A stretch of DNA of 63,367 nucleotides, the filler included, from Vannella sp. (Eukaryota): assembly GCA_023345925.1 (NCBI GenBank). It is 8 parts of 8 records of this genome, joined end to end, with 100 filler letters (N's around TTAATTAATTAA, not from the genome) between each part and the next. Parts side by side here need not be neighbours in the genome. Positions count along the whole stretch, not along the records: positions 15,221 to 23,540 come from JAJQQN010001250.1; positions 23,641 to 34,374 come from JAJQQN010000719.1; 6 more parts are not named here. One strand, given 5' to 3'. Position 1 is the first letter of the stretch; each line of letters opens with the position of its first letter. The notes under the pieces are model-generated. The model searched no databases and was not told the DNA's origin. It worked only from the letters and a program-made list of their open reading frames with translations. Below, piece by piece: positions 1,980 to 31,394 of this stretch. The translations under genes were made by a program, and so were the position numbers.

Positions 1980-2029
1980 AGCGATAAACGAGCTGGAGCA
2001 AGTGGAATAGGCGAGCATGGGCAGGTTTA

Positions 2030-2789: not shown

Positions 2790-3137
2790 GCACTTCCCAA
2801 GCAGCCCCCAGCAAATGCCTTCCCTCGGAGGGAGAGAAAATTCCTTCCTTTTTCGCTGTTCCCCTCTCCTTTCGGCGTCTGGAGAAGGAGGAAGAGCGAG
2901 TAGAGAAGGGAGAACTCGTAGATGTAGTCAGAGAGTGCCGTTAGTCGCTCTTGTAAGAAGGAGCGGGGATGGAAGGAGCGCGGTCGTGAAGGGGCGGAGG
3001 CATGTAAAGAGTGTCCGAGTAGAGTGGCCCTTGGCTACTTTGTGCAGCAGAGATGGCCATTGGTAGATCGGAGGATGCTCGAGCGACGTTCCTGTACAAA
3101 CATGAGCCGGTTGGAGCCTCTTCGAGTGATCTCTGGC

Positions 3138-3866: not shown

Positions 3867-4138
3867 CTCCCGCCCGCAACAAATGGCCTTCGCCAAGGCA
3901 TTGCTCCGTCCCTTACTTGTTCAGAGGCCACGTCCAAGGTCATTGAAGTGAATCAAAGAGGCCTCGAGACAAGGAGGAGTCGGAAGACGGCGAACGCTCC
4001 TCACCGTTCTGATTGGCTCTCGAGAGTAGAAGTTCTGCCTTCTGGGGAAACGGTTTGCTATCTATCTTTCTGGAAGAGTGAATGGCTCTCTCATGCTATC
4101 AGGACACCTTGGAGGTGGATCTGAAGGAGGTGAATGGT

Positions 4139-6263
4139 TTAGTTCAATTTGCGAAGGAGGACAGCCCAGTTGGAATGGTCATTGTAAGAGTTGAGAACTT
4201 GAATTGTCCCAACCTCGTGGAAAAGGCTTTCCAATTCACCTTGTCTGAAAACGTGGCAATATCGTTGGAGTACTTCACTCTCTTTCTGGCCCTTTGCTGT
4301 GAGGTGCCAAGGGACGAAGCAATCTTGTTCTGGAAACTTGCGAGAACCAACCTCTCCATCTGCTTGCTCAAAAGCCCAAGCATATACTAAAACGCGTCCT
4401 CCAGGCTTCGTGATGCGAAGTAACTCCCGGGCAAGACCCAGGCGTCTGGATTTGGTGCTAATATGATGGAAAACGGCAATGTTGAGAACAACATCGAAGA
4501 GCCCATCACGGAATGGCAGCGAAAGTCCATCGGCTACGAAGAGTTCGTGGTTGTGGACTCCTTTCAGTTTCGATTGAATCAACAGATTCTCGCTGATGTC
4601 AGTTCCAACAGAAACAACAGAAGGAGGGACGCATCGAAGGTATTTACCGTTCCCGCACCCCACATCAGCCAAAAGCATGGATTGGTCAATCCCATTGAAC
4701 TCTTCGAGATCTTCTGGAACGTTTGTCTGATCACGCAAAGTTAGGAACCGAGATATAAGAGGCCAAGGAGAGTGTCTGGTGTTGGAAAAATGCTCAGCAG
4801 CGGTCTGATAGAACTCTAGGACATGTTTACGCTCAAGTTTTTGTCCAGCAAGCTCGGATTCCTCTGAGCTCACCTGAAGCAATTGCCGAGTATTTTCATC
4901 CATCAACTGCGCTGTCTCCTTGCTGTCAGCTTGTTTGGTCTTGATGTTTGCCTGTTGGGTGTCACACGGACCTGGCCAAGAGCATTGGCACCTTTTAGAC
5001 TCCAGAACCCGGCGGAATGTCAAGGATACTCGACGATTTCTCTTCATCAGACGACTGTCCGAGAAGAATCTACCAACCAAGCTATTGTCATCCTCTGGCG
5101 AAACGTCCACGACATTATCAAAGCGCTTTTTCGTTATTCCGTGCTTCCAAGTATATCGGGATTCTGATGACATGACAAGAGCTGAGCAGCGAGGCAAGTA
5201 CACTCCAAGCTTTTTCTTTGGCTGCTCAGTATGTGAAAAGTCCATTCCACAACCAGAAAGCAGAGAGATGGAAGTTATTTCTGATTCAAAGGCCGAATGA
5301 GTGTCTACATGAGCCAGAATTCCTTGCCCCGGCTGATACTCATTCACTGTCACTTGGTTAGGTTCCAAAGTGAGTATTCCTCTTGTCATTAGTCTCTGAA
5401 TGAGTGTATCGAACACACTGGGAAGGCCATTTTCCACTCCCCCGTTTCTCGATAATTCATCGACATGAAGAGTGCCATAATTGAATCTGTAACCGTAATG
5501 CTGTACCCGACGGTTCATTGCAGAGGAGCTTCCTTGCTCACGAACCTCCCAGTGATCTCCCGGCCGATCAATCCAAGTCACTAATGCTGATTCCTCCTCT
5601 TCGTCGAGGATATCTTGGTGGAGTTGAAGGCCGGGTATCTTATCAGTTCTTGTTGAGTAAAGGACTTGTTTGGACTGCTGAGTTTGCTGAAAAGGGGTGA
5701 TGGGGACAACATGAGCACGGCTCACAGGCCACTGAAGGCCCCCAGACAGTGGAAAACGCTCCACTGAAGGAGATTTCCAGTCCTCAGAAGACAAGATATG
5801 ATAGACAGACTCTAGATCCTCAGGACAACAGAACTGAAGGTAGACGCAACTTTTCGCCTGCGAGATGCTGCCACTAAGCAGTAGAGGACGTCCTTCAGAG
5901 GATAGAAGAGCATTCACAATACAAATAACTTCTTCGAGGGCTTGAAGTGCGCAGTGTTGGATGGATCCTGAGAAGGAGCGACTGAGATAGAGATCAGAGC
6001 AAGCTCCCTCCTCCCCAAGCTTCCTATCGTAGCTACCAGAGCCATGCGTGGAGAAGCCAGCCTGCATTCGATTCCAAAATGGATCATCCTCTTCTTGTAA
6101 GGTGCGGAGGCGATCCAAGAACAGGGCAGCAGCCTTCGATTTGTTAAAGTTAAGGAAGAGATCCGCAGCGCCTTCTGTCTGAGGAGCTGTGAGAGTGTGT
6201 AAGAACAGATCCTTTGGGAACGTCAACACCACAATCTGTACGTGAGCTACTGCAGACTCCCAC
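4139..6263 (-). CDS. ALKBH8: ALKBH8-like tRNA wobble-uridine modifying enzyme (AlkB dioxygenase + Zn finger + Trm9-type methyltransferase), probably 5'-partial
   Basis: RRVQHYGYRFNY, NEYQPGQGILAHVD, WKHGI, RVSLTFR (2OG-Fe oxygenase); CQCSWPGPCD; LADVGCGNGKY, IAVFHH, QDCFVPW, RYCHVF (Trm9). Confidence 0.92.
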
Positions 6264-12147: not shown

Positions 12148-15045
12148 ATGCCTCTTTTGTGTCCTCGTTCAACCACAAGGTTGCGCTTCTTTACGATCGC
12201 CCACGCTTATGTGTTCCTCATCCTGCTCCCATTAGCTTTCTCGCAGCCCTACGTCGACAGCTTTACTCAGGGAAGCGGGGGTAACTCGTCATTTAGCAGT
12301 TGTTGCCCCAGTGTTGCACAGGTTTCGGAAGACCTCCCTGTGTGCGACGAAACGGAGCTGATTTGGTGCCGAAGAAGGGTCGATGCCAATCTCTACTGTC
12401 CGTCCTCTCTCCCAGCACCCTTTCTGAACGTGGAAGTCGGACCGGGTGGGGGCGTTTCCCTTGTGAACGGTCTAACCACTTGTTCGATGACTGTGAGCAT
12501 TCTCTATGAAGTTGACTTCTTCTCAAGTGACTTTGTATTCCTCGAGGCAGAACCCAGATTCCCCTCCGCGAGATCATTCCAGGTTCCCTACTCCTTTTCC
12601 AGTGATCCTGGTGTCACAATGCAGATGCAGATGTTCGTCACAACGTTCTTTCCGGGACCCCCCTTCTCAGAAATGTGCAGCCATCCTACGGTCCTTACAT
12701 TCCAAACAAGTGGCTCAGTCCAGTCGTTCCTTTACAAAGATTTCTCTGGTTTCTGCACTTTCGAGTCCATCAGCAAAATAGAAATTCAATTGACCTTCCC
12801 AAGAGGCGTCTTCAAAGCCTCTGGAATCGGATACTCCGCGCCTCCTCCTTCTGTCACTTCCTCCCCAACAGAGACGCCTTCTGTCACTGCATCGACAACC
12901 GTGACTTTAAGTCCCTCTCAAACGTCTGGGCTCTCATCTAGCAGCACTGCAAGTCCCTCTGAGACCGAAAGTAACACGATTACTCCCTCCCTTTCGTCAA
13001 GCCCTTCCGAAACCTCCACCCCGTCTTTGAGCAGCTCTTCTACTGCTTCCGAAACCTCCTCTGATTCGCCAAGCCAAACTCTCAGTTCGTCAACAAGTGA
13101 TACGGCGAGCCCCTCTGCGACCTCCACGTCATCAGAGACCAACACAGTCACTTCTTCCTCTTCGTCAAGCTCTTCAGGAACCTCCACCCCATCATTGACC
13201 GGCTCTCCCAGTGTTTCTTCATCCTCTTCCGAGTCGACGAGCCCAAAACCCAGTGCCTCAGCTAGCGAAACAGCAAGTGACACCGCGAGCCCCTCTGTCA
13301 CCTCCACGTCATCAGAGAGCAACATGATCACTCCCTCCTCTTCTTCGAGCTCTTCTCAAGCCCCCACGCCGTCCAGCAGCAGCTCTCCCAGCCAAACGCC
13401 CAGTCTCTCAGCAAGCGGAACAGTGAGTCCTTCTGCGACCTCTACACCAGATAGCAGTACGATCACGCCCTCCTTAAGCTCTTCCCAAACCTCCACGCCT
13501 TCAAGCAGTAGCTCCCTCAGCCCTTCTGCGACTTCCTCGGTAATGCACAGTCACAGTGGCAGTCCAACATGTACTACCAGCCCTTCCTCAACCTCAACGA
13601 TGTCAAACAGCAACTCTGAGAGTCTTTCCTTGGCCAGTAGCAGCTCTCCAAGTGTGTTTCTGACTATCTCTTCCACTTTCAGCCCTTCTTCTACCACCAG
13701 TGGCCTCCTGACAAGCCTCACGCCTTCAGAAAGCCAGTCTCCAAGTCTGTCATTGATCTCTACGGCATCAGAGAGCTCTTCTCTCAATTCTCCCCTGGTG
13801 AGTGCTTCCGCAACGGCTTCTCACAGTCAGACTCCTTCAAACCAAGCCATTACGGTTAGTACTACAATAACGCAAAGTCCTTCCGAAACCACTCCAACGA
13901 GGAACACTCTCTCTGAAAGTGCTTCTGGTTCTCTCTTGCTTACAACATTTCCATCTAGAGACCAATCTCCGACTCCTGTTTTCACACTCTCTCGAAGGGT
14001 ATCAATGCGTTCTGGGAATGTCTCTCCCTTTGGCTCAAGTTCTCTGATTCCAAGTGCATCTTTGTCCCGCAGTGAGGCTATTGAATCAGTTACAATTACC
14101 TCTAATCCTTCTGATGCCGCCTTCAGCCAAAGCTTAAGGAGTTCACTGCAACCTGGAATCTCACAGTCATCAAGTGCAAGTTCTTCTTTATCATTTCCTT
14201 CCAATACTTCAAAACCAAGTCTTGGACCTTTCATCTCTAACCGATTGAACTCTGCTTCTGCTGGAGTGATAGATACAACTGTAGAAAGAACGATTTCAGG
14301 GAGCAACCCAACAAGGACAAGAAACGCCAGCCCTTCCAAAGATAGACAATCCTTGTTGGAAGACTTAGGCACCAAATGCTCTTCCTGCGAGTTCTCCTCG
14401 ATTATCATCGATATGGATAGCCGACCTGATGACCAACCTTTGCTTGTGGAACTAACTGGAACGAGAGACCAGATTGTGGCGATTCTGTCAATACCTCGTG
14501 AAATGAGCAACCAAGTCAACACCTCGTTGAACATTGCATTTGCTTCGAATGTACCATCAAGCTTCTTCAATCAACCAGTAGGAGGGATCATCTTGGACAT
14601 AACCCTTGTTGATCAGTATGGACGCTTCATCACCAAGTTGGAAGATTCACTGACTATCTGCTTGCCTCGACCAAATCGGACATCCTTTGATGGAAAGAAC
14701 ATTTGCCTGGGCTATTATGTTGAGCAGAAGGCCAAGTGGAAGTGTGAGGATCTTTGCTTGATCAAATCACCAACGCAGGAGGGATACCTCTGTGGCGACA
14801 CAAGACATCTCACAAACTTTGCGTTACTCCTTCGGGGGCAGGATAAAAGCAGCGATGGAGATCCTTGCACAACAGAAGAACAGGACTACACCTTACTCTG
14901 GATAGCACTTGGATTAGCTGGTGGAGCGATCATTGCGATTCTCTTTTCGATCGTCCTCATCGAAATCAAGTACCGAAGGAGAGAATATCGAAAAAATATT
15001 GTTCTGAGCCTCATTCAAGCAGAAAATGAGCGCCTTCGGATATAG
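12148..15045 (+). CDS. Single-pass cell-surface protein with Ser/Thr mucin stalk and GPS (GAIN-like) autoproteolysis motif
   Basis: Signal peptide, Cys-containing N-domain, long S/T-rich stalk, CLGYY...WKCED...LCGDTRHLTNFALLL, one TM helix and a short basic cytoplasmic tail. Confidence 0.85.
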   Translation: MPLLCPRSTTRLRFFTIAHAYVFLILLPLAFSQPYVDSFTQGSGGNSSFSSCCPSVAQVSEDLPVCDETELIWCRRRVDANLYCPSSLPAPFLNVEVGPGGGVSLVNGLTTCSMTVSILYEVDFFSSDFVFLEAEPRFPSARSFQVPYSFSSDPGVTMQMQMFVTTFFPGPPFSEMCSHPTVLTFQTSGSVQSFLYKDFSGFCTFESISKIEIQLTFPRGVFKASGIGYSAPPPSVTSSPTETPSVTASTTVTLSPSQTSGLSSSSTASPSETESNTITPSLSSSPSETSTPSLSSSSTASETSSDSPSQTLSSSTSDTASPSATSTSSETNTVTSSSSSSSSGTSTPSLTGSPSVSSSSSESTSPKPSASASETASDTASPSVTSTSSESNMITPSSSSSSSQAPTPSSSSSPSQTPSLSASGTVSPSATSTPDSSTITPSLSSSQTSTPSSSSSLSPSATSSVMHSHSGSPTCTTSPSSTSTMSNSNSESLSLASSSSPSVFLTISSTFSPSSTTSGLLTSLTPSESQSPSLSLISTASESSSLNSPLVSASATASHSQTPSNQAITVSTTITQSPSETTPTRNTLSESASGSLLLTTFPSRDQSPTPVFTLSRRVSMRSGNVSPFGSSSLIPSASLSRSEAIESVTITSNPSDAAFSQSLRSSLQPGISQSSSASSSLSFPSNTSKPSLGPFISNRLNSASAGVIDTTVERTISGSNPTRTRNASPSKDRQSLLEDLGTKCSSCEFSSIIIDMDSRPDDQPLLVELTGTRDQIVAILSIPREMSNQVNTSLNIAFASNVPSSFFNQPVGGIILDITLVDQYGRFITKLEDSLTICLPRPNRTSFDGKNICLGYYVEQKAKWKCEDLCLIKSPTQEGYLCGDTRHLTNFALLLRGQDKSSDGDPCTTEEQDYTLLWIALGLAGGAIIAILFSIVLIEIKYRRREYRKNIVLSLIQAENERLRI

Positions 15046-16695: not shown

Positions 16696-18924
16696 TCATT
16701 CTTTAGGAAGAAGAAAGGGGCGAGACGCTTGGTGAAGGAGAGAAGGGTGGGCTGCGTCAATCCAATCGCGAAGGGAAGCCAATCGGTCATCCCACCAATA
16801 AGGGACGGGCACTAAGGTGATTCCAAGTTGGCGGCAAAGGTCTGCCTTCTCCCGGTCCCGCTGTTGGTAGAGTTCCAAGGACCCAAAGGCAGGCAAATCA
16901 GAATAATGGTGTTCTCCGTTGTACTCAAAAGCGAGCCGATACCGTGGAATGTAGATGTCAAGCTCCATAAGGTTACCACCAGCTCGCTGAGCTTCAGTCA
17001 TGATGAACTCTTCGACAATCTCTTCATCCGGGAAGAGTTTTCGGGCACAAATGCAAAGCCAGCGTTGACGTGAACGCTTGTCTTTGCGTGTTAATAATCC
17101 CTCGTCCCATTGTACATTCGGGTGGAGCTTGCGGAGGACGTTAATCAATCGGTGATGCGTTAAGAGTCCGCCCCCTCCTAAAGAAATGATTTGAGGGACG
17201 GAAATACGGTACCAGTCCTCATGCTCCCGGATGTCATAGTAGTGCTCTACTTTGGTAATGAATTCTGCCACATTATCTTCATTGTCCCAGTATCCCGGAG
17301 GGAGCCGGCGCTCTTGGATTATGGAGTCCCATGGATGATCTGGGTAGAGTTGCTTGAGCATGTCAATGAAGCTGGAGTAGTATCCCAGAATTGAGCCGCC
17401 GCCTTTGTCCCGTAGCTGAGCAGAAGATGCCTTGGCCCAATCATCCAAGCATTGAATGTTCAGGTGCTCTTGTCCAATCTTTTCTAAAAGCTTACGCCGA
17501 TTCTCTTCTTTCTGTAGGAAGTTCCGAGGTAGACGATGGTCCACGCTTGGCTCCCAATCGTACTCAGGATAGACCTCCTGAAGCAGTTCAAAGTATGACT
17601 TGGCTCCTCGGAGAAGCTGGCTTCCGCCATGTGCAATTATTGTTTGACTGTCCACTCCCAAAAGATCTCTTGGAGAAGCCAGTCCCAATGAGTTGCGAAA
17701 GTTCTCGAGAAACCTTCGCTTGTTTGGTAGAGTGGACCAGTGGTATCGAGGATGCCGGCGCAGAATTGTCCCCCATTCATCCTCTGGATAGAAGAACTCG
17801 AGAAACCCGTGGATTGTGTGGAAACGTGACAAAAGGACATGCCCGTTATATCGCTTGATATCATGAGTTCGCACACGGCGCCAATCTTCTTTAGAGCGAA
17901 TGCAGAGGTGCTCCTCAAGATGGTCAAGTACTTCGCGGAGCTTTCCTTCTTGGTCCCAATACCCAGGAGGGAGTTTGTGAGAGCTGAAGTTCCAGGCATC
18001 CCACTTCTGAGGTATCAAGGTTTGAAGCATCGTGTAACAGCTGTCATATTTCTCGAGAATAGGGCCAAGGCCGACCTGATACAAACGACGTTTCGGTATT
18101 GCATCCCATTCGAATGCGGTATGGAGTTTCTCCCTTTTGGAAACTTGTTCTATCAACTTCCTCTGCCCCTCAATCGTTTCATATGACTCTTCGGTGGGGA
18201 AAATGCCTTCCCAGTCAATTTCAGGGAAGAGTTTGGGGAACATATCTCGATAACGCGGGTATCGGGAGAGTAGCCCAGCACCTCCATATTCTTTAATCCG
18301 CTGATGAGTCACATTTACCCAATCGAATGGCTCTTTGATGCCCAATTTGACGATTAGGCTATCCAAAAACTCTCGCTGCTTGCCCAAGTCATTCCAATTG
18401 ATTGCTTCTGCTTTCGTAAGTCCCTGGTATTGAAGAAGAGCATCTTTGTGCCCATACAGAAGAAAGCGTTTTCCGTTGTGCCTGCACAAGAGTGCGCGAG
18501 TGACTTGCTGAGGCTGCAACTTCTCCAAAGATGCTACACGCTCAATGAAGGAATGCAAGTTCTTCTCGTCCTCAAAGTAAGATCGAGGAACTAGCAAAGG
18601 GACTGTGATGGGGTCCCACTGTTGCTCTGGATAGAGGGCTTTGAGTGTTCCGAACAAGGAGGAATGGAGAGAGATCAAGCGCCGTCCGCCATTCTGTGCG
18701 ATCTGCTCCCGGGTTACCAGATTCCAATCTGCAGGTGATCGGAGGCCTCTCTCTTCTGCAAAGGTCTCGATGAAGGACCGTTGATTAGATTCGGATGCCC
18801 AAAATCCCGCAGCTTTGGGGGTATTCGCAGCTTCCTTGATGGCTGGCGCGGAGGAAGATGCCTGAGGAACCCTCCATGACGTTCCTCCTCGACATCCCTC
18901 CCGCAAAGCCCGCCGTGCCCACAT
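16696..18924 (-). CDS. Tandem-repeat protein (8 x ~70-75 aa) with C-terminal Vsr/DUF559-like PD-(D/E)xK nuclease domain; possible mitochondrial presequence
   Basis: First ATG at 18924 (MWARRALREGCRGG...). Repeats follow GYW..N.R.F....L.I....DW..V....I...GG..LL...YP...W. C-terminus ELDIYIP..LAFEYNGEHHY..RDREK..C..GITLVPVPYWWD. Intronless. Confidence 0.85.
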   Translation of the reverse strand: MWARRALREGCRGGTSWRVPQASSSAPAIKEAANTPKAAGFWASESNQRSFIETFAEERGLRSPADWNLVTREQIAQNGGRRLISLHSSLFGTLKALYPEQQWDPITVPLLVPRSYFEDEKNLHSFIERVASLEKLQPQQVTRALLCRHNGKRFLLYGHKDALLQYQGLTKAEAINWNDLGKQREFLDSLIVKLGIKEPFDWVNVTHQRIKEYGGAGLLSRYPRYRDMFPKLFPEIDWEGIFPTEESYETIEGQRKLIEQVSKREKLHTAFEWDAIPKRRLYQVGLGPILEKYDSCYTMLQTLIPQKWDAWNFSSHKLPPGYWDQEGKLREVLDHLEEHLCIRSKEDWRRVRTHDIKRYNGHVLLSRFHTIHGFLEFFYPEDEWGTILRRHPRYHWSTLPNKRRFLENFRNSLGLASPRDLLGVDSQTIIAHGGSQLLRGAKSYFELLQEVYPEYDWEPSVDHRLPRNFLQKEENRRKLLEKIGQEHLNIQCLDDWAKASSAQLRDKGGGSILGYYSSFIDMLKQLYPDHPWDSIIQERRLPPGYWDNEDNVAEFITKVEHYYDIREHEDWYRISVPQIISLGGGGLLTHHRLINVLRKLHPNVQWDEGLLTRKDKRSRQRWLCICARKLFPDEEIVEEFIMTEAQRAGGNLMELDIYIPRYRLAFEYNGEHHYSDLPAFGSLELYQQRDREKADLCRQLGITLVPVPYWWDDRLASLRDWIDAAHPSLLHQASRPFLLPKE

Positions 18925-19153
18925 AAGCGGAGCTTGAAGAAATCTGATTGTCCGATCTTTTTCCAAGAAGTCAAAGTTCTGCCATCAGGGTCTTAACAAC
19001 TATACTAAACATTAACCCATTGGAAATCATTCAATTACAAATGAACTTGGTGAGTTTGGCTGTTCCAGAAGATTCCGGAGACAAACCAAACTTTGGGATT
19101 TCGATCGTTTCGTTTCATTCTTTCAGCAGCCGGTACGTTCAACCTCTCCACAA

Positions 19154-19236
19154 GTCTATCGTGATGAACAACTCTGGCTGAACATTCATGTTGATATTAT
19201 TATAATCGAACACGCCAGTTCTGCTTCTGAACAGAC
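19154..19236 (+). ncRNA. Box C/D snoRNA, U38/snR61-like guide for LSU rRNA 2'-O-methylation
   Basis: C box GTGATGA 19161-19167, D' CTGA 19178-19181, C' ATGTTGA 19188-19194, D CTGA 19227-19230, terminal stem GTCT/AGAC. The 14-nt guide CGCCAGTTCTGCTT is complementary to the conserved LSU sequence AAGCAGAACUGGCG. Confidence 0.85.
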
Positions 19237-19256
19237 GCTATTTTTTCCACAATCGT

Positions 19257-20314
19257 TTACTCACCCTCACCACTAGGTTCAGCAACGTCAGCTACTCGCG
19301 GCTTGGCCTTGAAGGGCTTGTGGAAGGTGAAATAAATATCTTTCACTTTCTTAGCACCAAGTCCATCAATGACTGCAAGCTCTTCCATGTCTGCAGCAAT
19401 GGTCCGTTTCAACGTCTTCTGATCGTCAGCAGAAGGCAAAGAACAACGCCCAAACACCTACCCCGTATGAAGTGGCAAGGCTGCGCACGTTCCGCTTGTT
19501 AACTGTTCTGATCGATGTCATGCAGTCAGTCAAGCGTGATTCATAGTCTTCCTCTATCTTCTTTTGAATGGCATCTGCTGGCTTGTTCTCGTACACTTTG
19601 AAGGTTTCAATGTACCTTGCTGCTTCGTCGTTGCTACGTTTGAGTTGAGATCGACTTTCATTAATGAGATAGTCTACCTACCTCCATGAACAAAGCAAGG
19701 TGGCGTCATTTCGGAGGCAAAGAGTGCTGATGTGTTGAAGAGGGCCCAAGTCCGGCTTTGTAGCTTCGATTAGAAGAGGAAGAAACGTCTGAGGAACATA
19801 CTGAGTCTACCAAGCAGAAGACCACGCGAAGGAGGAAACTGCAGGCGCGAAGACCGCGGAACCTCGCTTCAAGATATCCAGGATGTTCTGTATGGTACTT
19901 CACACTGATAAAGAGGCCACAGCGTGTGGAAGAGAACACGTAGTCTGGTACAATGTCCGAGAAGAGGTACTTGCAATGCTCAAGGCGGCGAAGAATGGGG
20001 TTGCCTTCTTGGCAAGGGTTCACAAGAAGCTCCCTGCCGCTGGTGATGGGGCGCTTTTCGTGTGCTACTGGCATTGGGAGGGGTTTGGTTAAGGGTGTGG
20101 CACCTTTAGTAGCCGTTTGGAGAGGTCCTGCCCGAGGGACTGTGCTTGGAAAGGTATTGCCAACATTGGGAACGATGTGGCGAGGAGGAGGAGCCACCTG
20201 AGGGATAACAGGAAGAGGATGCTTTGGGGTTTTTTGCAACTCTTCGAAGAGATCCAACATGCACGCTTCCTCATCCTCCCCAAGCTCCGGTATGACTATC
20301 GGGGCTCGCGACAT
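19257..20314 (-). CDS. ERCC1: DNA excision repair protein ERCC1/Rad10 (multi-exon)
   Basis: LLVNPCQEGNPIL, PDYV, FISVKYH..HPGY, EAARYIETFKVYENKPADAI and HhH motif GLGAKKV. Several short introns. Confidence 0.92.
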
Positions 20315-20510
20315 CTCCTGACCAGTAAATGTTGGCACTTTCGCCTAAACAATTGAACAAAGGTGAAAATCACATTGAGAGGAGAAAAAGATGCCTTCTG
20401 CTTTCAGTCAGCTTCAATGAATGATCTTGGAACCGATTAAATTTAGCAATATTGATCTCTCAGAAAACCGATTTAGAGGACACATTTAGGATAAAACCAC
20501 TCTTCCTTGC

Positions 20511-23500
20511 ATGCCGACGCCCAGCACGCAGGGCGTCCTACTGGGCTTCACCCTCTTGGACAAGGTCCACTCCAAGACTGTGGTTGTGGAGTGCCATACT
20601 TGGCGTATTGCACACGCCAACAAGCATTTCTGCAACTTCTTCAAGACAGTCGAACGGATCCCTGGGAAGACGTTGGCGTTTCCCACTAGTCTAAGGGGTG
20701 TCCTCTCATCAAATAGCATGTCAAAGCTTGAGTCCCATTCGAGGGATGGGCTGTTCCCCTTTGTTCTGGAGGCTGAGGTGCTGGACGAGTACCGAACGAT
20801 CAACATGGAGGCTCATGTTGAGCTGGTCTCGCTCCCTTATCGTCTTTCTGAAGACCCTAAGGGAGAAACCGGTGAGGAGAACACAGAATACTTTATCATC
20901 ACCTTCCGGAAGGAAAGCTTACAGAGGAATGAGAGCATCAGGACCCTCCAATGCCTCAAGTACACCACAGCCAGCATCTCCCTCTTTGATGTGATGTCTC
21001 TCCATTCACCCAAGCTACTCTTACAGAGTAGAGATGCTAAACGGCAGGGTATCACCGCTGAGACGTTCTTTAACGATCCCCGCTTGCGCACCGCCATGGA
21101 GGAGCTCTACTCCTCCTCCTCGGAGACTCTATCTTCGGTCTCCATCAGTGAGTTCGTCCCTATTCCTTTCAGACGAACGGATTTCGATACGAACCGATCC
21201 ACTCCTCGCTGTCCAAGGAGGTCGCTTCCTGATATCCACAACTCCCCCAAGCCCCAACGGACTGACACCCAACCGGATGGAGAGGAGAGGTTCTATGCCA
21301 TCACTTTCGTCAAGCTGACGGACCCCATCACCAACCACCCCTGCTTCTTTGTCCGAAAGATGGACATCACGGACATCAAGAGAAGCGAGCAGAAGCTCGA
21401 GCACGCTCTCACTCAGAGTCAACTGACAGCAGACTTCATAAGCAATCTCTCTCATGAGATCCGTACGCCTCTCAATGGTATCTTGGGAATGCTTCAGTAT
21501 CTGGCCGACACCGACCAGACATTGGACCAGTACAATGCCACCAGCACGGCCATCAGCTCGACCATCGCACTGACGGATCTTCTGTCTGATGTTTTGGACT
21601 TCTCCAAAATCGAAGCGGGAAAGCTCACCATCCGACCAGGACCTGTTCTTGTGCGAGATCTCATTCGGTTGCTGGAAGAGGTTTGCCAGCTATTTGGTAC
21701 GGCTGTGACCTCCAAAAACTTGGGCCTCCACTTGGATTACCCTATGGGATTTGCGTTTCGCGACCATCACGTCTTAGAGACGTCAATGGCTTCCTTTCCA
21801 AGTTTCATTATTTCGGACATTCATCGGATCCGGCAAGTTCTCATCAATCTGATAAGCAATGCGGTCAAGTATACGCCCTCTGGACATGTCTGCGTTCGGT
21901 TAAAGGTACTGTCTAATGGGAGTAAAGGATCAAAGGGACTTCCTATTCGCATTGAAGTCGAAGACACTGGCGAGGGCATTGATACCAGTAGCCCGTTAAG
22001 CGTTTTCCAGAGATTCCAAAGAATGGCTGGAGACACAGGATTGAATGTGGACGATGTATGCCGTCCAGAGGGCACTGGAATCGGACTCTCCATCAGCAAA
22101 AAAATCACGGAAATGTTAGGCGGTCAAATGCTTCTGACATCAAAGCTTGGAGAGGGTAGCACCTTCACACTATGCCTCCCTGAGACTATCTCGACAGAGA
22201 AGGATGCTAGTGAAAACTCTCCTGTATCTTTTCGAAAAACGCCACGGTGCTCTGTTCCAGACATCACTTTGCTTTCGGCCGGAACTGCAGAGTGGAAAAA
22301 GAAGAGCCCTCGCAGATTTTCTGCGTCAGACACTGCCCTGAAAGAGATTGGCTCTTTAAAAGGACTGGTGGTCGGGACAGCTCTGCAAATAGTCAGCCCT
22401 CAGCACTCTCTACTGATAGGCCCAATGGTCAGATCTTTCCTGAAATCGATTGGAGTAGTACACTTTGATACCTTCTGTGACCTCCGGGACATAACTGCCG
22501 TTGAATCAAGCAGAGTCACTTACTTCCTGGATATTGCAAATACTGTGCCATTCCCGTCTGAGCAGTCTGCATCAAGTGGAAGGAGGGAGTGCATATCTGA
22601 CGAGTTGGACCGCGAGCAGCATCTCTGGATAACTCAAACCTGCGCACAAATCAAAGCTCTCTATGAGTCAATATGTCGTGCACATGGAACCCCTACTGAA
22701 TCGCTTAAGGCCACTGAGGGGCCCACTCACACCCACCCGTCTAATCAAGCCCTCTTGTTCGTTCTAATTCCGCTGGGATGCGTTAATCTACTTGCTTCCG
22801 TACTTCTGAATGTCCCTTGGTTTACTTCTTGGTTAGCCTCTCCTTTAATACCGGTCCAAATGATATCTGCTCTAAGTGGCAATTATATACAATGTAACGG
22901 GGTCAAAAGCCGACATAGCCCACGAATATCGCCAACCCTTTCACCCCGCACCAAGAACCCGTCACCTCTTCATTCTCCCAGGGCTACACAGTCTACCCTA
23001 GTGACGAACCGTTCAAACTCAACACCTCGTGCTAACTTCTTACCGTCAGTGCCCCAGAGTGTGCTTGGGGGTGAGCTTTTCCGCCTTCTTGTGGCAGAAG
23101 ACAACAAATTCAACCGCCAGGTATTCCAACGCCTCCTGAGCAAGATACGAACCGATGTAGACATTGATTGGGCGTTTGATGGCGCAGAAGCCGTCCAAAA
23201 GTTCCAGGACTCCTTGCACTCGCAAAACCCTTACAGCCTTTGCTTTATGGATATCCAAATGCCTCACCTGAATGGATACCAAGCCACGGCTGCCATTCGT
23301 CAACTGGAGGCGACCTTCTACTCTCCTCGACTCCCGATTATTGCTCTCAGCGGTAACACAGCAGAAGAGTCTCGTAAGAAGTGTCTGTCCGTTGGAATGG
23401 AAGCTTCTCTGTCCAAACCTATCCGAAAGGAGCTTCTCACTGCAACTCTGGAGACCTTCTTGCCAGCGCACCCCCAACAGCTCCTGGCGAGTTCATGTGA

Positions 23501-23519
23501 CACAGTAAATGGTAAATAG
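20511..23519 (+). CDS. Cytoplasmic hybrid histidine kinase (PAS-like input, HisKA, HATPase, receiver)
   Basis: H-box FISNLSHEIRTPLNGILG; N-box QVLINLISNAVKYT; G1 VEDTGEGI; G2 GTGIGLSISKKI; receiver LVAEDN...FMDIQMP..NG...SKP. Confidence 0.95.
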   Translation: MPTPSTQGVLLGFTLLDKVHSKTVVVECHTWRIAHANKHFCNFFKTVERIPGKTLAFPTSLRGVLSSNSMSKLESHSRDGLFPFVLEAEVLDEYRTINMEAHVELVSLPYRLSEDPKGETGEENTEYFIITFRKESLQRNESIRTLQCLKYTTASISLFDVMSLHSPKLLLQSRDAKRQGITAETFFNDPRLRTAMEELYSSSSETLSSVSISEFVPIPFRRTDFDTNRSTPRCPRRSLPDIHNSPKPQRTDTQPDGEERFYAITFVKLTDPITNHPCFFVRKMDITDIKRSEQKLEHALTQSQLTADFISNLSHEIRTPLNGILGMLQYLADTDQTLDQYNATSTAISSTIALTDLLSDVLDFSKIEAGKLTIRPGPVLVRDLIRLLEEVCQLFGTAVTSKNLGLHLDYPMGFAFRDHHVLETSMASFPSFIISDIHRIRQVLINLISNAVKYTPSGHVCVRLKVLSNGSKGSKGLPIRIEVEDTGEGIDTSSPLSVFQRFQRMAGDTGLNVDDVCRPEGTGIGLSISKKITEMLGGQMLLTSKLGEGSTFTLCLPETISTEKDASENSPVSFRKTPRCSVPDITLLSAGTAEWKKKSPRRFSASDTALKEIGSLKGLVVGTALQIVSPQHSLLIGPMVRSFLKSIGVVHFDTFCDLRDITAVESSRVTYFLDIANTVPFPSEQSASSGRRECISDELDREQHLWITQTCAQIKALYESICRAHGTPTESLKATEGPTHTHPSNQALLFVLIPLGCVNLLASVLLNVPWFTSWLASPLIPVQMISALSGNYIQCNGVKSRHSPRISPTLSPRTKNPSPLHSPRATQSTLVTNRSNSTPRANFLPSVPQSVLGGELFRLLVAEDNKFNRQVFQRLLSKIRTDVDIDWAFDGAEAVQKFQDSLHSQNPYSLCFMDIQMPHLNGYQATAAIRQLEATFYSPRLPIIALSGNTAEESRKKCLSVGMEASLSKPIRKELLTATLETFLPAHPQQLLASSCDTVNGK

Positions 23520-23874
23520 AACCTCTCATTCTTTCCTCGGNNNNNNNNNNNNNNNNNNNNNNNNNNNNNNNNNNNNNNNNNNNNTTAATTAATTAANNNN
23601 NNNNNNNNNNNNNNNNNNNNNNNNNNNNNNNNNNNNNNNNATCAGGGGAGGAAGCGCTCCGTACGTAGAGATATCTCCGAAAACGAGCAGAAGTGGGAAA
23701 GGGGGCCACGTTCCAAATCCGTACTTACTGGGTGGACCTCTTACACCAGGGCCCTTGCATAACGCTCTGCACCCACTACCCGATCTGCTTTGTTGTTCTG
23801 GGGTCTCCAATGCATCAGTAACTGTTAAATATATGAGTCCATTTACAAATTCATCTTTCCTCTCTTTAGCATGT

Positions 23875-26800
23875 CTAATTTTGCGCTGTTTGAGTGCAAA
23901 AATCTCTCGCTGCACCGTTGTTGGGATGCGTTATTCCTTCGGAGATTGTGCGAGAAAGCTCTGATTGGATGGCTTGGAGGAATGGAACAACAGGAATGTG
24001 TCGCGGGACAGGGAGATCCTCGAGCTCTCGTTTAGGAAGTTTCGCTTCGCACTGTTTTAGTTGAAGGAACCCCAAAAGTTTCTTTTCGTCAAAATCCTTT
24101 CTGAGGCTTCTTCCTAAAGGACCGGATTCAAAGGTGGTAGACCAACCAGCTTTCGTAAAGTTCCTCCATCTCTCTCGAAGTAATGAAAGTCCCAATTTGC
24201 ACTGTGGAGCTACAAAGTCTCCACATATTGGTATCTGTCGGTTGTGATTCACTGGATTCGTATGTTTTCCGGAGCAGGAGAGTGATTGGAAAAGCTCTTG
24301 AGCCGCTTTGCGTCGGAAAGGTTCCTCCAAGTGAACCAGGCTTGACACGTACTCTTCAAAGTTGCCACAAAGGGATCCATCTCTCGGCTTAGTTCTCAGA
24401 ATCAAATTACAGTGCCTCCAGATACGATCTGTGACTTGGGGCCAATCGAACTTCTTTGATAGGAGTGGTTGACTATCGAATTGAGCAATAAGCTCTTTGA
24501 GGGACTGCTTGGTCTGATCCAACAGGAATTCCGTGGCACATCCTGATGCTGTGATGAGATTGGACTCTTTGAGTGACTCAACTAAAACACTAGATGCGAC
24601 CAAACGGTCGCAGTTTGACCCTGAAATGGCATTCTCGAGGAAAGTGGAGTAAGTGAAGGAAGAATCTTCTACTTGGAAAAAGAGGAGATCGTCAAGGCAC
24701 TTTGGATTGATTTGGTGAAGAAGAGGGCTGCATTGTCCGAAGAATTTAGCTTGATTAGAGATTAAGATTAGAACAGCTAACCAATCTGGATAGAGCTGAC
24801 ATGATTGCTGGTGGTAGGGTTGAAGGGACTCCAGGGAACCAAGGACAGGTGCTCCTTTCTCCGATTTGAGGAAGAGACCGAGCTTCTCTCCAATCTGGTT
24901 GTTCCACTGGGACTGAGAAAAAGTAACGGTTATACCGTTTGCGGAGATAATTTCGCCAAGCTTAAATGTAACCTGCCCTTCAGGAGATAGCAGCCGGAAG
25001 GATTCGAAGTGCTTAAAGTGTATCTGTCGCTGTAAAGTCCAGCTTCGTTCTCCTTTCTCCTCCTGGATTTTAGTCTCCCATTCGCAACACACCTGCCAGA
25101 CACCTCCTTCTATCTGCTGCTCAAGGATGAGAGGCAAGTGAGTGTCAGTTTGAGAGGTCGTCCCTTTGAAGCAAACCCAATCAGAAACGCTGCTAATGAG
25201 CTGTTTTTGGAGACCTAAAATAAGGTGTTTCCTATCTGGAGCATCTTCCAGCTTGATTCGGAAGACCAGCAAGTCTTGATCTCGGCAAAATGTGCGCTGG
25301 AGCAATTGAGTGAGCCATTGATCCAGGATGCTTCGGCACCTTTCTGCGATGGCGTATGCCTGAGACATGCACCTAATCACCTCATTGCCTTGGCTCTCTA
25401 CACTCTCCTTGGCAACAATTTGCAGCTGGCTGCATCTCAGTCTATGAATTTGCTCCTGATTGAATTGTAATTGCTCGACTAAATCCTTATCTCCGTTACA
25501 GGGCACCTCAGCGCTTGAGCGTAGAAGCTTCCAATTAGCTTGCGTTTTGGCCAAATCTTTGTTGCCCGTGCATGACTTTGAGTGAAGCACCTCTTGAAGC
25601 TGTCCAGCTGGTACTAAGTCAGATATGTAGTCTTCACCAACCATTATCGATATTTGAGCACTGTAATATAACTTTTGGCTCAATTGCTCTTCAAATAAGT
25701 CAAGCATAGAGCTAGCAACTAGCCGTATTGCCTCGATTTCATATGAAAATCGCTGCAGTGTTCTAGCTTGGCGGTAGCAAGCTTCTGCAAGCCACTTGCG
25801 ATCTTGAGTCGAGCGGAAACTGGCAGCCGTCTTCCTCCATTCCTTGCATCGGCCGACCACCTGGGCAGCAGATGGGGATGGCATTCTATATAGGGCTACA
25901 AAGCGTACCTCCTCCTTTGTTAGGAATTGCGAGGGTAGTCGAATAAGATTAGTATCCACAGAACACTTATTTGGTTTGGAAGAGGACAAGGCAGCCAAGA
26001 TATTCTCGAGAGAGTTTTTCCCATCAACAGCCTCTTTGAAGAGAGCAACTAGATCACTTGAATTCTCTGATTCCCAATGAGGCTCTTCAACGAAAGAGAG
26101 TTGATGAATGCGAAAATCAATAAAGCGTTGGATTTTGCTTTTGAATTCCCATTTGAATGCTGGCTCCTCGAGAAGGGAGGCGATAGACTTTCCTCCTTCA
26201 ATTATGTCCGGATGAATGGACTCCCTTACTCCAGCACCATTCAGTTGGCTCATTATGTGGGCAAGAGCTCGCTTTGGAGTTTTCTTCCACTTTGCCTGGA
26301 GCGCTTTGCTAGGAACAACAAAAGAGAGCTTTCCTTGTTTGTGTGTTTCGAAAAGGCAGAGGGGACCTTTCAACAAAACGTATCGCAAGAGTTTGGAGAC
26401 TACACGGAAGCATTCATCGTAATCAGGAGCGATACTCAAGTGGATTGCAAACTTGTAGAAGGACCAGTCCGTCAATTGAGGTAATCCTTCGTTGAAATAG
26501 AGCGTTCCCGCCGAATCGCAGTTCTTCATCAATATGTTCGAGGTTCTTGCAGAATCAAACGAAAGTTTCATGCCCTTTGGATTATTTGCAATGCAAAAGT
26601 AGGTTTCACACCAACTTTGCGCTGTTCCATTCGGGAAGGAAAAGGACTGACAGTCCCATATCTTCTCTAAGCCACACTGAAGCTCCGATATCATATCAAA
26701 CCGACTCAAGCGCTTATTAATAGCCTCTATAATTTCAGCTGGAAAGCTGGAAGAGGTATTCGTAGGTATTTTACGGATCACGAACTGGAAGCTTTCGTCC

Positions 26801-29800
26801 AAATATTCTTGAAAGTGCAGTTCGAGCAAACTTCTGGTTGAGTGACTCAGTTTCAAGTCACTGATAGCAATTACAGGTATCAATTGATGCTCGTGGAGCT
26901 TTTGGTAGAGAGCGTGTTCGCTGCTGCAAATCGGGAAAGAGCTCGATTCTGTTGTAATTCCAAATTTGTGTGCGAACTTAATGAAAGCTTGATCCAAAAC
27001 GTGTAAAGTATTGACAAAGATCTCACAGGTCATATTGTGACTTGCTGAAGAAGGTCTCCCTCCCTGATTTCGGTCCAATTCTAAGGTTCTTCTAAGCCTG
27101 TCCCACAAGAGTGGTAGTTCCCCAATCTGAGCTGGAAGTGGTCCAGATTGCCTCAAAGAATTCGACATCTGTTGTTCTTTGTCCTCTACTCCAAAGAAAC
27201 CGTGGTCTTCCAGGGAATTCCAAACTAATTGGAGTCTGAGAAGCTGCAGTGGCCATGAGCTTGGTCCCTCACAGGCAAATAGAAAGCCAGCACCTATTCT
27301 GGGATCTAGTTTTGGTAGATTCAGGCCAAGCATTCTCATCTGAAGGGCGCATTGAAGGATGGCTATTTGTGACTTGCCTATCTGTTTACTATGGCCCTGA
27401 GGTAACTTTCCAGCAATCGCAACTGACTTCTGGCACAGTGCCATTGATTTGGAAAAGTCACCTTGACGAAGAAACGTCATTGCCATCCGTGTGGTAACAT
27501 CAGCCTCCCTACTGAGCTGATTATCACCCTTAAGAATGGTGATTGCTTGCTGGTAGAGAGTCGACGCCTCCGCGAATTTGCCGTGATCTCGTTGAATATC
27601 GGCCATAGCGGTAAGGATGACAGCAATCTGGGGACTCTGCTTTGCCACTGCTTCGTAAATCTCAAGCGAGCGCTCGTAGAAGCACATAGCTTCGGTCAAT
27701 TGACCTTGTCCAAGATGAAAAAGAGCAATCTCAAAGAGGGATTGGGCAAACTCTTCGCTTTGAGTTCCGAGCGTCTGTTCCTTGATAGTGATTGACTGCT
27801 CCAACAGGCTCCGAGTTTGGGAAACGTGGCCCAAATCAAAGTGAATTTGAGCTAAATTGAAGATAGCTGAAGCTACTACAACACTCTCAGGACCGAAATG
27901 CGCCGTGTAAATGGCAATAGCTTGCTCACACAGTGTTCTTGCTTTTTGGAAGTGCCCTTGTTCCTGAGAAATGGTTGACATGTACGAGAGAATCTTGCCC
28001 GCGTCCTCTCCACCCTTGTCTAGAGCCTCTACCATCAGGAGAGCTCGTTCGAAGAGGTACATAGAGGAGGCCAGAGACCTTTGATGATAATGGACTAAAG
28101 CTAAGCGGCTCAAAATAGAAGCAACCTCTTTGCTTTTCAAGCCATGGACTTTTTGGTTGATTGAGAGAACTCTCTGGTAAATAGTAGTCGCCTCTAGAAA
28201 GCGATTTTCCTTGCAATGCAGAATGGCAATTTGGTCCAATATAGTGGCTACCTCAGAGCTTTCTTGACCGTGCACCGTCTCATGGTTGCTTAGAATCCGC
28301 TCAAAAATGGTCATCGCTTCTGCAAAGCGGCTTTGCTCAATGAGAACCAAAGTCATACAGTCAAGTAGAAACAGAACTTCTTTGCGGTTTCTGCCGGATT
28401 CGTCACCTTCAAAAGCAAGCGCTCTCTCAAATAGACTCATTGCTTCGGATAGTTGGCCTTGATGACGTAGGACGCATCCCATATTGGTAAGTAGGAAGGA
28501 GTGTTGCTTGGTCTGAGACATCTTTGCACTCCAAGTCATCACCAGAGACTTCTTGGTGGAACTTACTTCCTCTGAAGTGCTTATTGGTTTCGTTGATGCC
28601 TCAAACATGGTCAGTGCTCGTTCATTAAGTTCCTTTGCTTGGGAAAAGTGAGTTTGTTTCAGATGAATACTCGCCATCACTCCAAGAGCAAACGCCATCT
28701 CTTCGCTGTCACCAGCATCTTGAGTTTCATAGATCGAGATAATCTCCCGACACAAAGCTATCGCTTCAGTGAACAGTCCTTGTTCGCGATAGGCTTTCGA
28801 CATGAGCGTGATGATCCATACAATCTCTGCGCTGGTAGGCCCGAATGCTTTTTGGTAGGCAATTCTCGCCCTTTCGCAAAGCATTATGGCCTCTGTGAGA
28901 AACCCCATCTCAACAAAGATGTGGGCCATATGAGCTATGATGATGGCTATTTCTTTGCTGTCATTGCCAAATGCTGCTTCTGCCAAGTACACAGTTTCTT
29001 CCAGGATACTCACTGCCTCAGGGAAACATCCTGCCTCACGATAGGCAGCACCGAGAGCTATCCGAGCGGAAACCACCTCCTTGCTGTCCTCTCCAGAGGC
29101 TTCCTTTTGAATGAGAAGTGCGCTCTGGAAAAAGCCAATCGCAGTATCATACTCCCCCTGTGTATATCGTATAGAGGCCATCACAAAGAGAAACTCGCCA
29201 ACTTCTTTGCTCCGCTTCCCAAATAACCCAATCATCAGAAGAAGTGTTGTTTCAAACAAACTCTCCGTGGAGTGGCTTTGAGACTCTCTGCTAAAGAGGA
29301 TAGAAGCCAATGCTTCATGTTGCTCTTCAGAGAAGGCCTTGAGCATGGATAATACTCTTCCGCCAAAGTCTTTTGCTAAAGTCAAGTGACCTTTCTCATA
29401 ATGAAGGAGCGCCAGGTGGACCAGAATGATGATGACCCTTTCGCTTTCCTCTCCAAAGGTTGCTTCAATGATGGAAAGAGAGCGCTTCAGCAACCTCTTA
29501 ACATCAGAGAAGACGGCACTCTTCTTCCGGTCCAGAGCTTTTTTCAAGCAGTCTGCAGCCGCCTGGGCAGGATTCAGTCCTCCTATGAAGGAGCAGTAAA
29601 GGGGCCGCAAAGAAGAACGCTCCTGAGCAGTAGAGAGAGCCCAAAGACGCTCCGCCAATTGTCGGATGGGAAGGGAGAAGCTTCCTCCCTCCTCCAAGTG
29701 GAGTTGAGTGCAGCTTTCAATGGCACTGATGCGGCTCTCCCATGTCCAACAAGGACTTTGATAGCTGGAGCTCAGGGAGGGAACGCCTGAAGAGTAAGCG

Positions 29801-30094
29801 CACCGATCATGAGGGCAACGGGTGCTTACTCGGCATTAGGAGGAGTGCAAGCTTCTCAAGATGCTGATGAAGCAAGCACAAAACTTGGTGACATGCCTCA
29901 GAGCAATAGGGACCACTCTGACACAGATAGCACCCACTTTCCCCCTCCAAAGCTGCCACTTTGCATCCTTTCCTCACACACAAGCGCCACTCCGAGTCCA
30001 AGATGTACCGTGCCGTCTCTACCTATGTATCAGTACAGTGGCTACCTGTAGATGGCTTACGGCTTCCTCTAGCCTTCTTCTTCGCCTGGACCAT
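23875..30094 (-). CDS. Large protein: MYND-like Zn finger, ~42-aa TPR array and long uncharacterised C-terminal region
   Basis: An upstream exon encodes CVRKGC...CYLCQSGPYCSEACHQ...H..H and is spliced (GTAAGC...TTCAG, about 29830-29788) in frame into the 1940-aa ORF with kinesin-light-chain-type TPRs. The ATG at 30094 is inferred. Confidence 0.75.
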
Positions 30095-30185
30095 GGCGGA
30101 GGGCGGGAGAAGGGAAAATGTCGCTCCCTCAAACCGCTCTAACTCCTTCCAATTCACTGGGGTGGGCCTGGGAGTAAGGGAGGAT

Positions 30186-31394
30186 CTATTCTTTGGGAAG
30201 ATAATCAGGATTCACTGCTGGATCGATGCCGCGGTCGATGTTGTATCGCTCTACGAGCTCTTCCCAAGTCACTCCGTCATTGCGAATGCGCCAGAAGTAG
30301 GGGTTCTTTAGCTTGCCGGATAGCTTCCACTCACCAAAGTGCTTCACTTTGAGAATGGTGCCTGCGGGAGGAGGGTGCTTAAAGTCAGTATAAGTGCATC
30401 GGATGGTTATCATCACGTCGTTAGGCAGCATACAGTCGTATCCTACGCATTTAGAGGCTTTGCAGACCATCTTCACCTCTGCGTCTTGCTGTAGCTTGAC
30501 CTTGAGCATGTTATAAGATCTTCCCGCCAGATAACTGGCCTCTGGCTTTCTTATCATCAATCCCTCGCCATTTCGGTTCACTACTTGGCGTAGTTCTTCT
30601 TTGAGATGCTCTGTGCCTGTGCATTTGGTGTAAGGGACGAACTCGAGAAAGTCACTCTCAGAAACAGTGTTTCTCATCTGAGAGAGCCTTTCCTCGAAGG
30701 GGAGGTTGTCATCAGGCGAGTCAAAGGCCATGAACTTGCAAGACCTCCAATCCTCTTCGTTGCTGCTCTTCAGCACCCGAATCAGGTGGCCAAACCGCTC
30801 GTAGCCGGCCCAAAGCTCCCCGTCGAGAGCGATATTGGGGGGTAGGCTGTCTAGGAACCACTGTGGAGGAGATAGAGGTCTTCCATACCGTGAGACAAGG
30901 ATGGAACCACTCCAGAAGGCGCGAATACCATCGTATTTCTCGGAGATCCAATAGCCGGTTGGATCGATCTCCTCATTCCAGACCTGTGAGAGCATCAGGT
31001 CCTTACCTGGAGCTCTCTTCTTCGAAGTAGAACTCCCTTCTGGAGGGCGCTGGGTGTGAAGGGGATCAGTGGAAGGAACGGAGAGCTTTCCTTCCTCTTT
31101 CTGCAGGATCTTCGCCCAGTCCTTGTCTGGATAGCTGGCTTCCAAAGCTTTCTTAAGATCCAGGTACTGTGAGAGTAAGCTACTTCCTCCACTCTTGCGG
31201 ACAGTGGCAGCGGTCACATTGCCCCAATCCTCATCCGAGGACCATCCCAACCGCGCGGATAGTTCATCCCAGAAGGCTCTCTGGTTCTCTACCTTCTTCC
31301 AATAGCCAGACGGCTTCCTCTTCACAACCTCCTCTGTGGCCAGCCCTCTTCGGACCAACCCACAACCAAGCGCAGCCCTTCTCCAAGGGAACAT
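30186..31394 (-). CDS. Minimal ATP-dependent DNA ligase with one N-terminal copy of the repeat seen in 16696-18924 and a putative mitochondrial presequence
   Basis: Motif I SEKYDGIR, III LDGEL, IIIa FMAFD, IV EGLMIR, V LKVK and a short OB-like end. N-terminus MFPWRRAALGCGLVRRGLAT. Intronless. Confidence 0.9.
   Translation of the reverse strand: MFPWRRAALGCGLVRRGLATEEVVKRKPSGYWKKVENQRAFWDELSARLGWSSDEDWGNVTAATVRKSGGSSLLSQYLDLKKALEASYPDKDWAKILQKEEGKLSVPSTDPLHTQRPPEGSSTSKKRAPGKDLMLSQVWNEEIDPTGYWISEKYDGIRAFWSGSILVSRYGRPLSPPQWFLDSLPPNIALDGELWAGYERFGHLIRVLKSSNEEDWRSCKFMAFDSPDDNLPFEERLSQMRNTVSESDFLEFVPYTKCTGTEHLKEELRQVVNRNGEGLMIRKPEASYLAGRSYNMLKVKLQQDAEVKMVCKASKCVGYDCMLPNDVMITIRCTYTDFKHPPPAGTILKVKHFGEWKLSGKLKNPYFWRIRNDGVTWEELVERYNIDRGIDPAVNPDYLPKE

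Follow-up and report, generated by a model that had tools for sequence, protein, structure and literature searches.

A DUF4046-like helical repeat shared by a Vsr-like nuclease and a Lig E-type DNA ligase in Vannella, with a possible role in mitochondrial DNA nicking and sealing

The stretch of DNA analysed here (the window; 63,367 nucleotides, filler included) comes from Vannella sp. (GenBank assembly GCA_023345925.1) and consists of 8 parts of 8 records joined end to end. Two of its genes, one for a predicted nuclease and the other for a predicted DNA ligase, encode the same helical repeat. The nuclease open reading frame (ORF) is free-standing, has its own ATG, and is flanked by unrelated genes. 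As an initial annotation of this DNA had recorded, the two genes lie on different contigs (JAJQQN010001250.1 and JAJQQN010000719.1); an N-spacer separates them, and thus their physical linkage is not established. The annotation had also held that an intronless state marks both genes. This does not stand, as the window contains 17 stop-free frames of at least 400 codons, including long genes of 1002, 1526, 1746 and 1823 codons, and introns are present in a relative of the nuclease gene. The features are listed below, where aa is amino acids, HMM is hidden Markov model, pLDDT and pTM are the AlphaFold2 local and global confidence scores, and NTase is nucleotidyltransferase.

16696..18924, minus strand: repeat-nuclease gene, 742 aa, single exon; AlphaFold2 mean pLDDT 89, pTM 0.51
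18817..18924, minus strand: N-terminal leader of the nuclease (aa 1-36), a predicted mitochondrial presequence; residues 1-25 include 5 Arg and one acid
17086..18816, minus strand: eight tandem helical repeats of ~72 aa (aa 37-613), from HMM and AlphaFold2 model
18589-18816, 18409-18588 (degenerate), 18196-18408 and 17971-18195, minus strand: nuclease repeat units, first four
17752-17970, 17530-17751, 17302-17529 and 17086-17301, minus strand: nuclease repeat units, last four
16735..17085, minus strand: Vsr/EDxHD-type PD-(D/E)xK nuclease domain (aa 614-730), with Q620, D656, E667, H673, D690 and K693
23541..23640, no strand: assembly spacer between the nuclease contig and the ligase contig
30186..31394, minus strand: gene for a Lig E-type ATP-dependent DNA ligase with the repeat, 402 aa, single exon
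31314..31394, minus strand: N-terminal leader of the ligase (aa 1-27), a predicted mitochondrial presequence with R-G-L-A at aa 16-19
31104..31313, minus strand: single repeat copy of the ligase (aa 28-97), then a flexible linker (aa 100-137); 56.7 bits with the nuclease-only HMM
30276..31004, minus strand: catalytic core of the Lig E ligase, NTase plus OB domain; intact motifs I (K153), III, IV and V; OB signature specific to the clade

The repeat shared by the two proteins is real. In the nuclease, the eight units are 60-76 aa long and 8-35% identical to one another; seven of the eight are recovered by the family HMM, and in the AlphaFold2 model each forms 5-6 short helices. BLASTP aligns the ligase with the nuclease at E 2e-11, and four of the units reach E<=3e-10. 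When an HMM is built from the eight nuclease units only, the ligase unit scores 56.7 bits (E 1.5e-16), while the top score among 2,000 shuffles of the ligase N-terminus is 8.5 bits. The same HMM finds nothing past E 0.3 elsewhere in the window among 1,529 six-frame segments. The AlphaFold2 model of the ligase presents the repeat as a separate helical domain, with block pLDDT values of 85-91 over aa 31-90 and values <50 in the linker that follows.

Pfam scans of the window proteins and of single units yield no family that matches the repeats, DUF4046 (PF13255) lying below its cut-off. The Pfam signal of DUF4046 is weak: it is seen in 3 of 56 relatives, with a top score of 20.1 bits against a gathering cut-off of 22.8, and in none of 94 further relatives at E<=0.001. 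DUF4046 is also a precomputed label on family member P0121 and occurs in Atlas neighbour rows. In the reverse direction, a Bacillota DUF4046 protein scores 29.8 bits with the family HMM, collinear over the whole unit, as compared with 11.1 bits for the best of 5,000 shuffles; this reciprocal match rests on one bacterial protein, the single usable one of 2 matches in a 401-genome scan. The other, L071, has an internal stop and no score with the repeat HMM. The collinear match and its margin over the shuffles argue that the repeat is, at the level of profile similarity, a remote relative of DUF4046. The Bacillota protein carries neither nuclease nor ligase, unlike the amoeba repeat proteins, and a window-only repeat profile gave no match in the sample of 401 Bacillota genomes. 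At locus L072 (592-1386 / 1390-2061), as read from the sequence, the Bacillota DUF4046 gene lies directly after a SIR2-like gene. The repeat profile matches nothing significantly among PDB sequences, and fold searches are dominated by the nuclease and ligase domains. Matches of the repeats to Myb_Rap1, CH, SAM_TNK, GIDA_C_1st, Spatacsin_C, BRCT_2, YezG-like and Tail_P2_I in Pfam were rejected, as no single stretch is significant; some reach the whole-protein cut-off only through summed weak scores over many repeats. Our literature search, which lacked most subscription papers, found no publication using the term DUF4046 and none describing the repeat family.

The C-terminal domain of the nuclease has a Vsr-like fold in which the catalytic Asp and His are present, the residues having been matched by spacing and fold rather than by residue-level superposition. 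Of 113 near-complete nuclease domains, 111 retain Asp656, Glu667, His673 and Asp690 together; 7 of 120 domain matches were too short for this count. In sequence, the domain comes closest to Vsr-like homing endonucleases of phages and to endonucleases of giant viruses, and the phage matches cover essentially the nuclease domain alone. The prototype of the Vsr-like homing endonuclease family cuts DNA, according to the part of PMC3239194 available. We compared the nuclease with I-Bth0305I, Vsr and PHROG families 559, 3339, 9084 and 7140. It shares with them the fold and the catalytic Asp and His; it differs in that its gene is nuclear, stands on its own and encodes a predicted targeting peptide, and in having DUF4046-like repeats in place of NUMOD motifs, for which no Pfam or PHROG match was found in the repeat region at E<=0.001. 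A second comparison covered proteins with a RAP domain, namely OPR/HPR-RAP proteins, human FASTKD4/5, Polytomella 6rd4 chain 2, and the Toxoplasma and Tetrahymena mitoribosomal RAP proteins. There the likeness is a Vsr-like C-terminal fold placed after helical repeats. The window units, however, average 72 aa and 5-6 helices, whereas PPR, HPR and OPR units span 34-40 aa, and no Pfam match to units of these kinds was found in the window proteins. Pfam RAP itself does not match the window nuclease (E<=10 for the whole protein, E<=1 for the domain) or any of 150 relatives, of which 1 was tested at E<=10, 56 at E<=0.05 and the rest at E<=0.001. Near-invariant catalytic residues and DNA-ligase fusions further distinguish the amoeba family, which occurs in Amoebozoa, a group for which RAP is reported as undetected (PMC8190603, in part). 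In sequence, the nuclease is nearer to phage homing endonucleases than to RAP.

The ligase is of the Lig E type as judged by sequence and fold, and is predicted to seal nicks. Its only sequence matches in the PDB are 4d05, 8u6x and 6gdr (E 4e-36 to 7e-25), and the same three rank first in Foldseek (E 1e-22). NCBIfam PRK09125 scores 193.8 bits, just below its cut-off of 200, and Pfam OB_2 also falls below its own cut-off. The 120 ligase homologues listed comprise the window protein itself, 6 orthologues (51-70% identical) and 113 bacterial-type proteins (35-44%). Five of the six orthologues have the repeat, one of them in part, and the sixth, P0007, is missing its N-terminus. The repeat is absent from all 113 Lig E proteins of the bacterial type. 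Metagenome locus L001 encodes three repeats followed by an intact Lig E. Compared with Psychromonas 4d05, Alteromonas 6gdr, Neisseria 8u6x, bdelloid AvLigE and kinetoplastid ligase K, the window ligase shares the NTase + OB core and its intact motifs, while its OB domain is divergent and it falls on its own branch together with the nuclease fusions. Bacterial-type Lig E is core only with a periplasmic signal, and other members bear PBZ fingers; the window ligase instead has a folded N-terminal DUF4046-like repeat and a basic, presequence-like leader. Bacterial Lig E joins DNA with the catalytic core alone, as stated in the available part of PMC7470946; the repeat therefore occupies the position of the DNA-binding domain of other ATP-dependent ligases and may act as one. 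Ten Lig E-like ligases on viral contigs (L041-L050) are without the repeat. The accessible sections of PMC10665377 place ligase K with Lig E, list Acanthamoeba and Planoprotostelium Lig E entries, and tie eukaryotic Lig E to DNA-damage tolerance.

The ~72-aa repeat is the basis of a single large protist family, of which both genes are members. We searched the eight-unit profile against 1.84 billion cluster representatives, which gave 7,876 protein clusters at E<=0.001 and 4,058 at 1e-10, and we analysed the best 150. These contain 4-25 repeats per protein; 111 end in the nuclease alone, 5 in nuclease and Lig E, and 34 consist of repeats only. By eye, about 13 of the 34 repeats-only proteins end just within the first helix of the nuclease, and since these ends coincide with the site of an intron in locus L036 they are probably gene-calling cuts. 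Only 5 of 20 family proteins looked up carry an organism name, in each case Cavostelium apophysatum. Among the Atlas neighbours of P0127 are clusters in which the most frequent recorded taxon is Tubulinea, Discosea or Nucleocytoviricota (few recorded members). Within the best 150, the closest member to the window nuclease is P0185 (36% identity over 710 aa), and the two pair in a FastTree tree of 113 last-repeat-plus-nuclease regions; a 52-row clade in that tree suggests a lineage-specific expansion. In P0257, P0262 and P0128 the nuclease domain is internal and followed by further repeats, P0257 having two such domains, a pattern that would show ongoing module shuffling. P0121 and P0147, both from C. 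apophysatum, have a common C-terminal Cys finger domain, which in P0147 directly follows the nuclease as if a ligase had been deleted. The finger has no Pfam match; we take it to resemble a PARP-type finger. The genome locus of a further member, P0233, was not found, and scanning with the 80-sequence alignment revealed no conserved seed.

The connection between cutter and sealer is seen most directly in natural fusions. Five of the best 150 (P0121, P0159, P0214, P0228 and P0274) join repeats, nuclease and Lig E in one protein. Ligase motifs I, III, IV and V are all intact in P0228 and P0274, and P0195 retains a ligase remnant. A quick tree of the ligase domains (34 rows), with support from the Shimodaira-Hasegawa-like approximate likelihood ratio test (SH-aLRT) and no bootstrap, places the window ligase, its 6 orthologues, the three-repeat ligase L001 and three of the fusions on a single branch (SH-aLRT 100). 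Long branches outside this group hold the two Cavostelium fusions; either one or two fusion events is thus possible, and the Cavostelium proteins may record a second. In metagenome loci L030 and L036, which are 90% identical, a repeat-nuclease gene with an intron is separated by ~1.2 kb and one other gene from a Lig E gene of the PBZ type. This is a single observation among 40 loci, and given the many paralogues the proximity may be due to chance. In that region (about 1-4430), the repeat and Vsr-like nuclease gene is divergent from the intron-bearing Lig E gene, in which PBZ fingers follow as in the bdelloid/Mortierella type. The gene between them has a YG-box-like motif, presumably SMN-like, and no Pfam match.

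A dedicated partnership of these two particular genes, on the other hand, is not supported by their sequences. The ligase repeat is 17-33% identical to the window nuclease units, no higher than the units are among themselves, and it is as close to the repeats of other family members as to these. The nuclease, for its part, is one of a family that runs to thousands of clusters, with expansions in particular lineages. Overall, the initial annotation had it right that the ligase N-terminus is one copy of the nuclease repeat, that the nuclease has a PD-(D/E)xK fold, that the ligase is a small dedicated one, that both N-termini are presequence-like, and that nuclease and ligase are linked, the last now by way of the fusions. 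Its view of the two genes as a specific pair is not supported. The repeat, for which it could name no family, is a remote DUF4046 relative and not of the OPR/HPR type, and the nuclease does not score as RAP.

Both window leaders are Arg-rich and acid-poor. The hydrophobic moment of the nuclease leader (0.94) is the highest among 24 window ORFs of at least 200 aa, and the R-x-[FYL]-[SACT] cleavage motif is absent from it; the moment of the ligase leader is unremarkable (0.43). Basic, acid-poor leaders of unrelated sequence occur in all five full-length ligase orthologues examined. Leader statistics for the family come from 93 of the 150 proteins, those in which the leader begins with Met and is at least 15 aa long. 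Arg makes up 9.8% of these leaders against 4.7% of the protein body, and Asp and Glu together 4.7% against 11.7%; in 71 of the 93, residues 1-20 include at most one acid. Eleven leaders contain R-x-[FYL]-[SAC]-[STA], as compared with 1.6 in shuffles (maximum 7 in 2,000), and 19 contain the looser R-x-[FYL]-[SACT], as compared with 9.3. Arg enrichment, acid depletion and R-x-[FYL] motifs are features of presequences, and mitochondrial import of the family proteins is likely on these predictions.

Several other single-exon or long genes lie in the window. Adjoining the ligase gene (23875-29346, minus strand) is a single-exon gene for a protein of 1,823 aa with TPR-like repeats in its N-terminal part and a long unassigned C-terminal half. 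The nuclease contig also carries, at 20511-23519 (plus strand), a single-exon gene of 1,002 aa that resembles a hybrid histidine kinase by its motifs. At 58764-63344 (minus) an alpha-actinin-like protein of ~1,526 aa is encoded, as compared with 860-890 aa in matched actinins, apparently with additional rod repeats. A 1,660-aa protein (47823-52805, plus) has a ubiquitin-conjugating-like C-terminal domain and an internal array of ~17-aa acidic repeats. Secreted-looking, Ser/Thr/Pro-rich surface proteins with a similar Cys-containing C-terminal domain are encoded at 12148-15045 and 45510-47420 (both plus).

Our best explanation of these data, to which we give a probability of about 0.45, is a mitochondrial DNA nick-and-seal toolkit made of repeat arrays, a Vsr-like nickase and a repeat-tethered Lig E. 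The repeats likely bind DNA, and the family likely works inside mitochondria. The arrays would bind DNA and position the Vsr-like nuclease, which is predicted to nick mitochondrial DNA; the tethered Lig E would reseal the nicks. Nuclease and ligase would then act in a common pathway of mitochondrial DNA replication, recombination or repair, with the ligase a general partner of the repeat-nuclease family and not of the window nuclease alone. We favour a DNA toolkit because the nuclease is of DNA-endonuclease descent, its active site is near-invariant and natural proteins fuse it to a DNA ligase. A number of observations weigh against it. Of the 150 family members analysed, 111 have a nuclease but lack a ligase, and three of the five fused ligases (P0121, P0159 and P0214) lack one or more catalytic residues, so that most of the nucleases would work without a fused sealer. 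The two window genes sit on separate contigs, and the top match of the ligase repeat in the window nuclease ranks 145th among 1,200 repeat hits. The repeats are mildly basic (family mean net charge +2.2, pI 6.8-7.2 in the window proteins), the trees, built quickly or with FastTree, contain long branches, and lineage-specific expansion recalls the RNA-binding PPR and OPR families rather than DNA-repair enzymes. In the nuclease fold search RAP/FASTKD proteins tie with I-Bth0305I, and in those proteins the same fold acts on RNA or merely binds it, as described in the part of PMC11879112 available.

In the main rival explanation, the repeat-nucleases would do in Amoebozoa what OPR/HPR-RAP and FASTKD proteins do elsewhere, with every paralogue binding one particular mitochondrial RNA and cutting or protecting it; the ligase would be an ordinary mitochondrial DNA ligase with one borrowed repeat as a general nucleic-acid tether, and the fusions often-decaying side products. 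The expansions and the degenerate fused ligases fit this well, and an Atlas cluster near P0127 (86% eukaryote, commonest taxon Tubulinea) is automatically named 'RAP domain-containing protein'. As far as PMC8190603 is available, RAP proteins likewise combine a presequence, helical repeats and a C-terminal Vsr-like fold, and the failure to detect RAP in Amoebozoa leaves the niche open. That source also gives the catalytic residues as kept in ~50% of RAP domains, against the 111 of 113 here. Together with the absence of a Pfam RAP match, the kinship to DNA homing endonucleases and the occurrence of DNA-ligase fusion on two branches of the ligase tree, this leads us to regard the RNA explanation as somewhat unlikely, if the nearest competitor of the nick-and-seal toolkit.

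Two further explanations are less probable still. The nucleases could be part of a genetic-conflict system derived from homing endonucleases, in which nuclear genes that multiply rapidly would direct sequence-reading DNA cutters into mitochondria, or against the DNA of endosymbionts or giant viruses, so that foreign or rival DNA is destroyed, with the repeat ligase as an antidote for self DNA. Their nearest relatives are indeed mobile phage and giant-virus endonucleases, the expansions are large with active sites intact, Nucleocytoviricota are among the Atlas clusters near P0127 (few members), and the ligase evolves slowly while the nucleases diversify. However, no copy of the repeat turned up in the samples searched, which were 120 viral loci where the nuclease motif occurs, 12 viral loci for Lig E, and tblastn matches from phages and plasmids. 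The GC content of both genes, overall and at third codon positions (GC3), falls inside the range of the neighbouring genes, orthologue-like nuclease relatives such as P0185 occur in other genomes, and the ORF context shows no self-splicing intron or intein around the nuclease, no RNA-family scan having been run; we therefore hold such a conflict system to be distinctly improbable. The possibility that the basic N-termini are disordered tails, and that both proteins serve nuclear DNA repair like the Lig E of bdelloid rotifers, seems to us very unlikely. It would accord with the link of eukaryotic Lig E to DNA-damage tolerance (PMC10665377, in part), with the missing cleavage motif of the nuclease and the weak hydrophobic moment of the ligase leader, and with the repeat-nuclease gene near a PBZ-type Lig E in one other genome. 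Against this, Arg enrichment, acid depletion and excess of cleavage motifs are family-wide, and orthologous ligases conserve the composition of the leader but not its sequence.

To our knowledge, little is known of RNA processing and DNA maintenance in amoebozoan mitochondria. The design of a targeted helical repeat with a Vsr-like domain is already known, and amoebozoan Lig E is already in the tree of PMC10665377, as far as that source is available; the present repeat type, an intact homing-endonuclease-like domain and a DNA-ligase fusion were not found in print by our literature search. The family reaches the helical-repeat and Vsr-nuclease design by way of a different repeat, in thousands of clusters with near-invariant active sites, and it offers both a candidate DNA ligase for mitochondria and natural fusions of nuclease with ligase. 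A bolder and doubtful extension of the nick-and-seal toolkit is that the repeats read a long nucleic-acid sequence unit by unit and aim a nickase derived from homing endonucleases, after which Lig E, fused or repeat-tethered, reseals, which would amount to modular mitochondrial genome editing in amoebae. If this is true, nature would have produced in this family a new class of repeat reader, separate from the PPR, OPR and TAL repeats and potentially programmable, and if units read sequence singly they would offer a new binding scaffold. Whether the family serves DNA nick-and-seal or RNA processing, either gives DUF4046-like repeats a testable function.

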